The notes under the pieces were generated by a model, which saw nothing but the letters and a program-made list of their open reading frames with translations, was not told where the DNA came from and searched no databases. Shown here one piece after another: positions 43,959 to 44,566 of a DNA stretch of 64,000 bases (positions are counted from its first letter, which is position 1; the number at the start of each line of letters is the position of its first letter). Source of the stretch: Escherichia coli (GTDB lineage Bacteria > Pseudomonadota > Gammaproteobacteria > Enterobacterales > Enterobacteriaceae); the NCBI RefSeq assembly GCF_044324875.1, contig NZ_CP172185.1; one strand, 5' to 3'. A program made the position numbers and the translations under genes.

Positions 43959-44566
43959 GATTGTCTGCTCCCCTGTCTTGTTATAGGAGCAGTATTCAAG
44001 AATAAAAACATTCATTAAAAGAATTAGTCGTTATCGCACAGATGATTTTATTCTTAGCAAAAAAGCGGCAAAGGAAAGATTAAATATGCAATTACACCCA
44101 CGCTGACAATTCAGTAAGTTACTGCACTTCATTTTTATTAATGCATAAACAAGCAGAACATAATGTCTTTTATTTTATTAACAGCAATATATATAATGAA
44201 ATCATTATATTCACATTGCATATATAACTGTATCATTCTCAATCAACCACATAATACATTCACATAATGTATATAATCCATATTTGTGCCTAGAACATAT
44301 TTTTAATATGTAATTAATTGACAAACTAAATCACATCTAAATACAATATATAAAACAAAATAACTATACAAACCAAACACACAAACACTTAACATATGAA
44401 TTACATAAAAGATTACGCAGTCGTATCCCCGTACCTGAAAGCCCCTTATTTTTCAGCTATCAGTAATTTTTAACACTTAAAAATTAGCATCTGTCTGTGC
44501 CAGAGATTACGTCTCTGCGAGCGTCGTTGTGCTTGTAGTATAATAAATAAAATGGAGTGTCATTAA

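Follow-up and report, generated by a model that had tools for sequence, protein, structure and literature searches.

The DNA analysed was a stretch of 64,000 nucleotides of the Escherichia coli contig NZ_CP172185.1 (hereafter the window). The gene tauA, encoding the binding protein of a taurine ABC transporter, occupies positions 42996-43958 on the minus strand, and yaiS, encoding a PIG-L family deacetylase of 223 codons with a GTG start, occupies 44567-45238 on the plus strand. It is the first gene of the cassette yaiS-yaiP-yaiX-yaiO (yaiSPXO), which further comprises genes for a PgaC-like GT2 synthase (yaiP), a hexapeptide acetyltransferase (yaiX), and an outer-membrane beta-barrel protein (yaiO). 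With the gene starts of the RefSeq annotation of K-12 and M7424, the spacer between tauA and yaiS covers 43959-44566 (608 bp, 29.8% G+C). The first-pass annotation had recognised the divergent arrangement of the two genes, which was borne out, and had set the left edge of the spacer at 44016. This edge is wrong because the longest open reading frame (ATG 44015) had been taken, whereas the annotated and conserved start of tauA is the ATG at 43958.

The strong AT-richness described for the region was confirmed. Positions 44016-44566 have 29.0% G+C and the core at 44100-44420 has 24.3%, compared to a window mean of 51.4% (sd 5.5%, calculated over 551-nt windows), and the spacer is the lowest-GC stretch within the 64-kb window. 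The dinucleotide TpA occurs in the core at a frequency of 0.144 versus 0.045 window-wide, which suggests flexibility rather than static bending. Hexamers resembling a -10 element were counted 19 times in the 608 bp, compared to 3.5 on average (sd 3.4) and 20 at most in bins of this size across the window, the highest count being that of a bin overlapping the spacer. Recurring words in the spacer are largely such hexamers (CATAAT, TATAAT). The motifs that had led to the description of the region as repeat-laden are present, the quoted strings being located at 44368-44388 (acaaaccaaacacacaaacac) and 44261-44280 (cacataatgtatataatcca), but the description itself was overstated. No tandem arrays were detected in the spacer by Tandem Repeats Finder, and dispersed repeats were found as two-copy families only (16-25 nt, 74-81% identity). 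In comparison to 2000 dinucleotide-preserving shuffles, hand-picked motifs were enriched post hoc only (p ~0.005-0.02, uncorrected), repeated 6-8-mers were marginally above the shuffled sequences (p 0.03-0.045), and repeated 9-10-mers as well as the longest exact repeat (9 nt) were at chance level. The spacer also contains a G-depleted tract in yaiS sense (44185-44419, plus strand), which is the sole place in the 64 kb with three or fewer G per 80 nt; positions 44314-44393 hold 17 C and a single G. This depletion is common to K-12 and E. whittamii, partial in E. fergusonii, and absent upstream of the yaiSPXO cassettes of Citrobacter and Yersinia. It is an Escherichia-only trait and was ruled out as a property that is conserved along with the cassette.

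The tauA promoter is a textbook target of Cbl and CysB, and activation of the tauABCD promoter by Cbl/CysB has reportedly been known since 1997. In the window, the tauA-adjacent 130 bp (approximately) are the tauA promoter and are conserved across Enterobacteriaceae. A transcription start was recorded for K-12 by Cappable-seq at U00096.2 position 384430 (+) (PMC4782308 supplement). After the K-12 coordinate offset had been verified, this position was mapped to 43984 (minus strand), 26 nt upstream of the ATG. No other start on the tauA-sense strand is listed for the K-12 spacer, including the core, in the same data set (PMC4782308). The core promoter at 43991-44018 (minus strand) consists of a -35 element TTAATG (44018-44013), a 16-nt spacing, and a -10 element AATACT (43996-43991). 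Its position fits the mapped start, and the two hexamers are correctly spaced for sigma-70. The sulfate-starvation promoter of tauABCD that had been proposed for this region was thereby located as a sigma-70 promoter with a mapped K-12 start. The -10 element and the downstream leader are invariant in 13 Enterobacteriaceae, and the -35 element is weak, as expected for an activator-dependent promoter. The adjoining region at 44019-44090 (minus strand), which includes TTCTTAGCAAAAAAGCGGCAAAGG (44049-44072), can be aligned in 13 taxa of different genera, and also between E. coli alleles that are not alignable elsewhere. It is a putative binding region for Cbl/CysB. No clear similarity was found between the tauA upstream region and that of ssuE, and the LysR-box consensus was not enriched in the spacer relative to shuffled sequences. 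The locus agrees with the Cbl/CysB-activated tauABCD promoter in the operon, in the start 26 nt upstream of the gene, and in the conserved region above a weak -35 element, but this promoter accounts for only about 130 of the 608 bp of the spacer.

On the yaiS side, conserved and variable segments alternate. The AT-rich segment at 44099-44292 is hypervariable, with 74% identity to K-12 and a 9-bp indel, and it is here that IS1 insertions are found in other strains (at ~44152 and ~44184). It is followed by a block of 108 bp (44293-44400, plus strand) comprising a UP-like AT-rich stretch, a distal yaiS promoter, and the first part of a CA-rich leader with acaaaccaaacacacaaacac. The block is 94-100% identical among E. 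coli alleles and kept in E. fergusonii. Its identity to E. whittamii is 95.4%, in comparison to a divergence of 28-30% at four-fold sites, and outside Escherichia no match was obtained with BLAST and nhmmer. Judged from these alignments, the block appears to be under strong constraint inside fast-diverging DNA. A promoter scan predicted the distal sigma-70 promoter at 44318-44347 (plus strand; TTGACA-18-TACAAT, 11/12 matches), with a start at about 44354 and a leader of about 213 nt. The same hexamers, TTGACA-18-TACAAT, are listed for yaiS of K-12 in a genomic SELEX study of RpoD, with an HNS flag (PMC3946193). A second variable segment (44401-44500; 76% identical to K-12, 81% to E. whittamii) separates the block from a perfect palindrome, CAGAGA-TTACG-TCTCTG (44501-44517), a candidate operator that would lie over the -35 position of a proximal promoter. 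Both arms are unchanged in sequence in K-12, M7424, and also E. whittamii; in GPEC1035 and IHE3034 one base of the left arm is changed from A to G, which breaks one palindrome pair. The proximal elements themselves (44539-44557, plus strand), a consensus -10 TATAAT (44539-44544) and a Shine-Dalgarno sequence GGAG (44554-44557), are identical in all E. coli alleles examined, and a K-12 SELEX peak of the RpoS holoenzyme maps to window position 44539. No yaiS entries were found in the SMRT-Cappable-seq and Srinivasan 2015 supplements.

The distribution of the cassette was analysed by comparison of tauA loci. In complete E. coli genomes, yaiS adjoins tauA in 4248 of 5426 (78%). Among 80 tauA loci of other species, those of E. 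whittamii and E. fergusonii are the only ones with yaiS as the neighbour of tauA. In many other genera the slot of yaiSPXO is taken by another gene cluster, and in 34 of the 80 loci the opposite strand encodes a UhpA-like response regulator no more than about 2.9 kb upstream of tauA. Upstream spacers of tauA were compared in 46 of the 80 loci; they are mostly 120-370 bp long (approximately) with 36-53% G+C, and a trough below 33% G+C was found among them in E. whittamii only. In E. coli O157:H7, RR-HK-uhpC-ABC transporter genes replace window positions 43997-47872. The breakpoints were placed upstream of both bordering genes, at a distance of about 38 bp from tauA and about 70 bp from frmR. 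The tauA-frmR slot showed neither an integrase nor a tRNA nor flanking direct repeats. With its two alternative cassettes, this slot resembles the 'switched' intergenic regions and replaceable cassettes of the E. coli pan-genome. The tauA promoter of yaiS-type strains is strongly diverged between -38 and -130 from the version in O157:H7 and other genera. In Citrobacter, Yersinia, Superficieibacter, Salmonella, and an [Enterobacter] lignolyticus-like genome, the yaiSPXO genes were found as well, located elsewhere on the chromosome. The cassette is always accompanied by 436-1329 bp of gene-free upstream DNA that holds a 200-bp trough of 17-27.5% G+C, and the upstream regions in Citrobacter and Yersinia gave no BLAST match to the spacer of the window. 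The AT-rich tract belongs to the replaceable cassette and not to tauA, and the spacer is made up of two joined regulatory regions, the tauA promoter and a cassette control region, rather than being one unit.

The AT-rich part of the spacer is already catalogued in K-12; it is real but not new. By orthology mapping, the AT- and TpA-rich core at 44113-44412, presumed to be a platform for an H-NS filament, corresponds to the K-12 promoter island 383994_309. The entry yaiS/tauA of this island is classified as H-NS-bound in all compiled ChIP studies (code 'A') and is linked to foreign genes by three predictors (Panyukov & Ozoline 2013, Table 1, PMC3661553). The K-12 spacer furthermore carries the HNS flag in the genomic SELEX table (Shimada 2014, PMC3946193). 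Binding of H-NS, which had been suggested for the window, is supported through its K-12 ortholog by this compilation and this flag. Both alleles share the locus, the flanking genes, the AT-rich core, the TTGACA-18-TACAAT promoter, and the predicted-foreign genes; the allele of the window differs in being 85% identical over the spacer and 74-76% identical in two segments, with the 9-bp indel. Composition, anatomy, conservation pattern, and cassette replacement were computed in this study, and the K-12 literature supplied the occupancy by H-NS, the binding of RNA polymerase, and the start of tauA. The window allele, which is 85% identical to K-12 across the spacer, would presumably act like that of K-12.

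Promoter islands are defined by the Ozoline group as stretches of at least 300 bp with an extreme density of starts predicted by PlatProm, for which the count of -10-like hexamers was used here as a proxy. [quoted passage not shown] They are further characterised by bound RNA polymerase that yields little productive transcription; for K-12, SELEX peaks of the RpoD and RpoS holoenzymes are on record at this locus, along with the lack of tauA-sense starts within the core. Full -35/-10 pairs did not exceed composition-matched shuffles (2 versus 4.0 ± 2.1 expected), so that the 'island' character is largely a by-product of base composition. Low G+C content and richness in TpA over hundreds of bp, as in targets of H-NS, were found here as well (24% versus 51% G+C). 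Examples of xenogeneic silencing by H-NS, which acts on horizontally acquired AT-rich DNA, are the control regions of proU, bgl, LEE, and SPI-1. The spacer resembles such targets in several hundred bp of low G+C, TpA-rich DNA, in the H-NS occupancy reported for K-12, and in its location at one end of a patchily distributed low-GC cassette. It differs from them in that no nucleation motif is present above chance: the sequence TCGATAAATT, which is said to be the high-affinity nucleation motif of H-NS (described in 2007), was not enriched, with one site at two mismatches versus 1.6 ± 1.3 in shuffles. This motif is not obligatory for H-NS binding. The cargo, a four-gene putative exopolysaccharide module, is also unlike virulence islands. 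The silencing would act on yaiSPXO, for which we know of no counter-silencer.

Several other explanations of the spacer were considered. The first-pass annotation had described the tract as curved-looking and as a typical platform for IHF and Fis in addition to H-NS, and a predicted local bend of 19.9 degrees per turn at an A6 tract (44062) and many short A/T tracts are in keeping with an intrinsically curved architectural element that recruits these proteins. The mean curvature in a wedge model was, however, practically that of the window (7.2 versus 6.9 degrees per turn; wedge parameters were checked against synthetic phased A-tract controls only), and the 27 A-tracts of the spacer showed no helical phasing at about 10.5 bp (Rayleigh power ≤1.6). 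Consensus sites of IHF and Fis were at or below shuffled expectation, and no specific enrichment of either protein is reported in the promoter-island study (PMC3661553). Such an element is therefore considered very unlikely. A small RNA or small protein gene hidden in the spacer, as also proposed, is judged to be about equally improbable. In its favour, a strong and conserved predicted promoter is followed by a non-coding stretch of about 213 nt, a 30-codon ORF at 44303-44395 (minus strand) is intact in six of six alleles, and ykiC, a verified small protein, is encoded nearby, antisense to yaiS. The spacer yielded no match to Rfam even at E ≤1 and no terminator-like site; the fold of the yaiS leader was no better than that of shuffles (z = -0.87), with compensatory changes in 0 of 55 pairs; and conservation falls right after 44400. 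None of the small ORFs is conserved as a protein, and most are frameshifted or stopped in other alleles. The 30-codon ORF itself has no Shine-Dalgarno sequence, and its variable sites, about ten when counted by eye, result in eight amino-acid changes. Another frame of this stretch is just as open, and nothing is annotated in the spacer in the RefSeq record of K-12. As for a sigma-54 promoter, yaiS is named in a list of sigma-54-dependent promoters derived from RegulonDB (quoted in PMC3118216). No GG-N10-GC was found in yaiS-sense orientation in the spacer of the window or of K-12, the GG is missing from the closest K-12 sequence (TAACATATGAATTGCA), and we regard transcription from such a promoter as extremely improbable.

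Two further explanations concern what the AT-rich DNA does. The spacer could be an ordinary long divergent promoter region with two regulated promoters and the associated transcription-factor sites; it would then be AT-rich simply on account of its promoters and UP elements, and would not be silenced. Clear promoter elements were found for both genes, a palindromic candidate operator is present at 44501-44517, and most of the conserved sequence is explicable as promoters. Promoters cover, however, about 250 bp and not 608; the tauA spacers of other Enterobacteriaceae are mostly shorter and richer in G+C, as given above; and H-NS is reported on the K-12 spacer by both ChIP and SELEX (PMC3661553, PMC3946193), which makes this explanation unlikely. 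Alternatively, the variable AT-rich segments could be non-functional filler at a cassette junction that is drifting under AT-biased mutation and indels and binds H-NS incidentally, without selection. In favour of this explanation, 44099-44292 and 44401-44500 are 74-76% identical to K-12 while flanking four-fold sites differ by only 4.5-13%. Natural isolates tolerate IS1 insertions and IS1-mediated deletions there, and many strains have a yaiS that is truncated or annotated as a pseudogene. On the other hand, conserved and variable blocks alternate, and seven lineages have an AT-rich trough together with the cassette, in the two compared by BLAST without detectable similarity to the spacer of the window. 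A trough without shared sequence argues that the property and not the sequence is maintained. Filler is a possible, though somewhat doubtful, description of these segments, and for the variable parts it is compatible with the explanation preferred here.

The spacer is best explained as a composite of the tauA promoter and the control region of an H-NS-silenced cassette, and this is considered quite probable. According to this explanation, the tauA module would be a vertically inherited, activator-dependent sigma-70 promoter with an upstream region to which Cbl and CysB presumably bind. The remaining 475 bp (approximately) would control, from upstream, a horizontally mobile low-GC cassette of four genes. 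RNA polymerase would be able to bind the core at approximately 44113-44412, which is full of -10-like hexamers, and H-NS would polymerise along this core and keep it and the cassette largely silent. Embedded in the core is one strongly conserved, predicted near-consensus promoter (TTGACA-18-TACAAT) with its CA-rich leader, and a second putative promoter, consisting of a -10 element only, is situated near yaiS together with the palindromic candidate operator. A more specific proposal, which we put forward as speculation with little chance of being correct, is that the block at 44293-44400, with its near-consensus promoter and almost G-free leader, serves specifically to switch the cryptic, exopolysaccharide-like yaiSPXO cassette on and off. 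In one version, the unstructured C-rich leader could load Rho, and H-NS and Rho together could abort transcripts before yaiS, an effect that could be relieved by some anti-silencer or anti-terminator. In the other version, the leader sequence ACACUU could pair with GGAGUGU at the ribosome-binding site and thereby occlude translation.

The significance of these results beyond bookkeeping is small, and the modest gain is comparative. An AT-rich upstream tract goes with the yaiSPXO cassette wherever the cassette lands, the tauA-frmR slot of E. coli holds two alternative cassettes, and one short block of promoter and leader appears strongly constrained. The locus may serve as a clean natural example of how silenced, horizontally acquired modules are wired beside core promoters, and the block at 44293-44400 would be the specific element to mutate in order to wake the uncharacterised yaiSPXO genes.

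The window is part of an Escherichia coli chromosome and is collinear with K-12 in the opposite direction, descending from about 427 kb through the tau and frm genes at around 380 kb, with tauCBA on the minus strand and yaiS-yaiP on the plus strand. The first-pass annotation had placed the left boundary of the tauA-yaiS spacer at 44016, having used the longest ORF; annotation and conservation across genera both put the tauA start at ATG 43958, and the spacer therefore comprises 608 bp (43959-44566). Its strong AT-richness was confirmed, with 29.8% G+C in the spacer and 24.3% in its core (44100-44420) versus a window mean of 51.4%. 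The lowest G+C content of all 551-nt stretches in the 64 kb was found here, and the TpA frequency of the core was three times the window average. Other troughs below 36% G+C were located at 27441-28180 (ddlA-iraP spacer) and 38821-39570 (hemB-yaiT/ehaB spacer and 5' end of the autotransporter gene). Elsewhere in the window, about 1.66 kb of low G+C between acpH and malZ (3120-4782) was absent from K-12; its 485-codon ORF (3137-4594, minus strand) belonged to no NCBIfam family and gave only a sub-threshold Pfam match. The segment between queA and acpH was longer than in K-12 by 124 bp (2411-2534), and about 1.4 kb (36139-37545) had no megablast alignment to the K-12 locus, which carries IS3 inside yaiT at this position.

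The spacer was aligned with the alleles of K-12, three other E. coli strains and E. whittamii, revealing a mosaic of conserved and variable segments. Identities to K-12 and E. whittamii, respectively, were 96% and 89% for the tauA promoter segment (43959-44098), 74% (with a 9-bp indel) and 81% for a hypervariable segment (44099-44292), 94% and 95% for a conserved block of 108 bp (44293-44400), 76% and 81% for a variable segment (44401-44500), and 95% and 89% for the yaiS-proximal elements (44501-44566). Four-fold degenerate sites differed from K-12 by 13% in tauA and 6.9% in yaiS, and from E. whittamii by 28-30%. The 95% identity of the 108-bp block to E. whittamii, set against this silent-site divergence, argues that the block is under strong constraint; the variable segments diverged two to four times as much as silent sites. 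At least two isolates had independently acquired IS1 within the AT-rich core (at about 44152 and about 44184), and a third had lost the spacer through IS1-bounded rearrangements. IS1 in or adjoining the spacer was seen in three unrelated E. coli isolates (L004, L005 and L097) and was associated with deletions in two of them: one lacked yaiS-yaiX, the other tauA-C and part of tauD.

For the tauA side, tauA loci were collected from 80 species. Approximately 130 bp 5' of the tauA ATG could be aligned from Escherichia to Enterobacter, Klebsiella and Silvania, including an invariant AATACT with the leader and a conserved region 5' of a weak -35 element. The K-12 Cappable-seq start at U00096.2 384430 (+), 26 nt 5' of tauA (PMC4782308, supplement), mapped to window position 43984, correctly positioned after AATACT; the 776-bp coordinate offset used was verified independently. 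Between 383338 and 384430 the same dataset contains no further start in the tauA sense (PMC4782308, supplement), and therefore none inside the AT-rich core. Based on conservation, 44019-44090 is a putative activator region (Cbl/CysB); it showed no clear similarity to the DNA upstream of ssuE. In the 46 of 80 species loci that were profiled, the spacer upstream of tauA mostly measured about 120-370 bp with 36-53% G+C, and a 200-bp trough below 33% G+C occurred in E. whittamii only.

Comparison with O157:H7 by BLAST placed breakpoints at 43996/43997 and 47872/47873. The exchanged part (43997-47872 versus 625-8748 of the O157:H7 locus L088) consisted of 3.9 kb with the AT-rich spacer and yaiS-yaiP-yaiX-yaiO (48% G+C) in place of 8.1 kb (54% G+C) in O157:H7. 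There, the tauA-frmR interval encodes a response regulator, a histidine kinase, a uhpC-like protein and ABC transporter components. A UhpA-like response regulator gene on the opposite strand, at most about 2.9 kb upstream of tauA, was present in 34 of the 80 loci, and O157:H7 shares this arrangement. The tauA-frmR slot of E. coli holds either of two cassettes, yaiSPXO or the response regulator-kinase-uhpC-ABC transporter genes. Because the latter arrangement is common to Citrobacter, Klebsiella, Raoultella, Enterobacter and others, it suggests the older state of the slot.

The yaiS-type spacer was near full length in 4248 of 5426 complete E. coli genomes and also occurred in E. whittamii and E. 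fergusonii. Citrobacter braakii, Yersinia enterocolitica, Superficieibacter, Salmonella and an [Enterobacter] lignolyticus-like genome carried the four-gene cassette too, in unrelated chromosomal locations, each time preceded by 436-1329 bp of gene-free DNA with a 200-bp trough of 17-27.5% G+C. By BLAST, neither the Citrobacter nor the Yersinia upstream region matched the window spacer, and a search of the five non-Escherichia regions with a profile built from the conserved block yielded nothing significant. Since low-G+C gene-free DNA precedes yaiS at every cassette site, the AT-rich tract is a property travelling with the cassette and lies outside the tau operon's own control region.

The cassette (44567-47777; compared at loci L089-L094) is a conserved mobile four-gene module encoding a PIG-L deacetylase, a GT2 synthase (best match PgaC/IcaA, sub-threshold), a hexapeptide acetyltransferase and the YaiO outer-membrane beta-barrel. 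It appears to be an uncharacterised synthase-dependent exopolysaccharide system. The window's yaiS (44567-45238) is a complete ORF of 223 codons; the K-12 version is shortened to 185 residues, and those of M7424, IHE3034 and GPEC1035 are flagged as pseudogenes lacking the C-terminus. In the cassettes compared from Escherichia and Yersinia, yaiS begins with GTG or TTG. Antisense to the yaiS 3' end, ykiC (45104-45223, minus strand; 39 residues) is conserved, differing in two residues from the K-12 small protein, which has been verified (PMC6001520).

Several other readings of the spacer were evaluated. Curvature was modelled with Bolshoy-Trifonov wedge angles, sanity-checked against synthetic A-tracts with and without phasing. 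The curved DNA proposed earlier was not borne out: predicted curvature was 7.2 degrees per turn in the spacer versus 6.9 in the window, the single local peak was an A6 tract at 44062, and the 27 A-tracts lacked helical phasing. A specific protein-binding platform, including the suggested IHF/Fis platform, was not supported, as H-NS high-affinity motifs and IHF and Fis consensus sites were at or below shuffled expectation. A hidden small RNA was likewise discounted: the spacer gave no Rfam match even at E<=1 and no terminator-like site, the predicted 227-nt leader folded no better than shuffles (z = -0.87), and a five-sequence consensus structure contained no compensatory change. Most small ORFs were frameshifted or stopped in other alleles. 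A 30-codon ORF (44303-44395, minus strand) was intact in all six alleles, but showed eight amino-acid changes from about ten variable sites (as counted visually from the alignment), lacked a Shine-Dalgarno sequence and overlapped another equally open frame; a small protein gene was therefore not supported. PMC3118216 quotes a sigma-54 list, derived from RegulonDB, that names yaiS; a sigma-54 promoter was not supported, as no GG-N10-GC site exists in yaiS-sense orientation in the window or K-12.

The description of the spacer as repeat-laden was overstated. Both strings quoted in support were present, and repeated 6-8-mers were in marginal excess (p 0.03-0.045) over 2000 dinucleotide-preserving shuffles; however, Tandem Repeats Finder detected no tandem repeats in the spacer, and the longest exact repeat (9 nt) equalled chance expectation. 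Dispersed repeats were limited to two-copy families (16-25 nt, 74-81% identity), and enrichment of hand-picked motifs was post hoc only (p ~0.005-0.02); the repeat evidence is weak. The recurring words were mostly -10-like hexamers (CATAAT and TATAAT, three each), of which the spacer contained 19 (window mean 3.5, sd 3.4; maximum 20, in a bin overlapping the spacer).

Within the 64 kb, only the yaiS-sense strand of 44185-44419 contained at most 3 G per 80 nt, with 17 C and 1 G in 44314-44393. Both the conserved block and the beginning of the predicted leader overlap this tract. Its skew was common to K-12 and E. whittamii, partly to E. fergusonii, and was not seen in the Citrobacter or Yersinia cassette upstream regions. 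Rho prefers C-rich, G-poor, unstructured leaders, and one may speculate that the yaiS leader is suited to it.

H-NS prefers TpA-rich DNA, and the high TpA frequency of the core fits this preference. The K-12 ortholog is 383994_309 yaiS(-)/tauA(+), one of 78 "promoter islands" of Panyukov and Ozoline, where three predictors link it to foreign genes and it is scored as bound by H-NS "according to all studies" (Grainger, Kahramanoglou, Oshima; PMC3661553); it mapped to 44113-44412. Shimada et al. reported the same K-12 spacer as bound by RpoD holoenzyme, with an HNS flag, and gave the yaiS promoter as TTGACA-18-TACAAT (PMC3946193), which was located at 44318-44347 with 11 of 12 matches in a promoter scan. 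A K-12 RpoS-holoenzyme SELEX peak (PMC5493296) mapped to 44539, on an orphan consensus TATAAT that lies 22 nt ahead of the GTG start codon. The proposed H-NS platform is thus supported by published K-12 data, and we infer H-NS occupancy for the window allele. The AT-rich core would be the H-NS-coated regulatory region of a horizontally acquired cassette, attracting polymerase with poor productivity and abutting an ordinary tauA promoter. Both this kind of feature and the locus itself were already on record; the modest additions are the ownership of the AT-rich tract by the cassette and the constrained promoter block.
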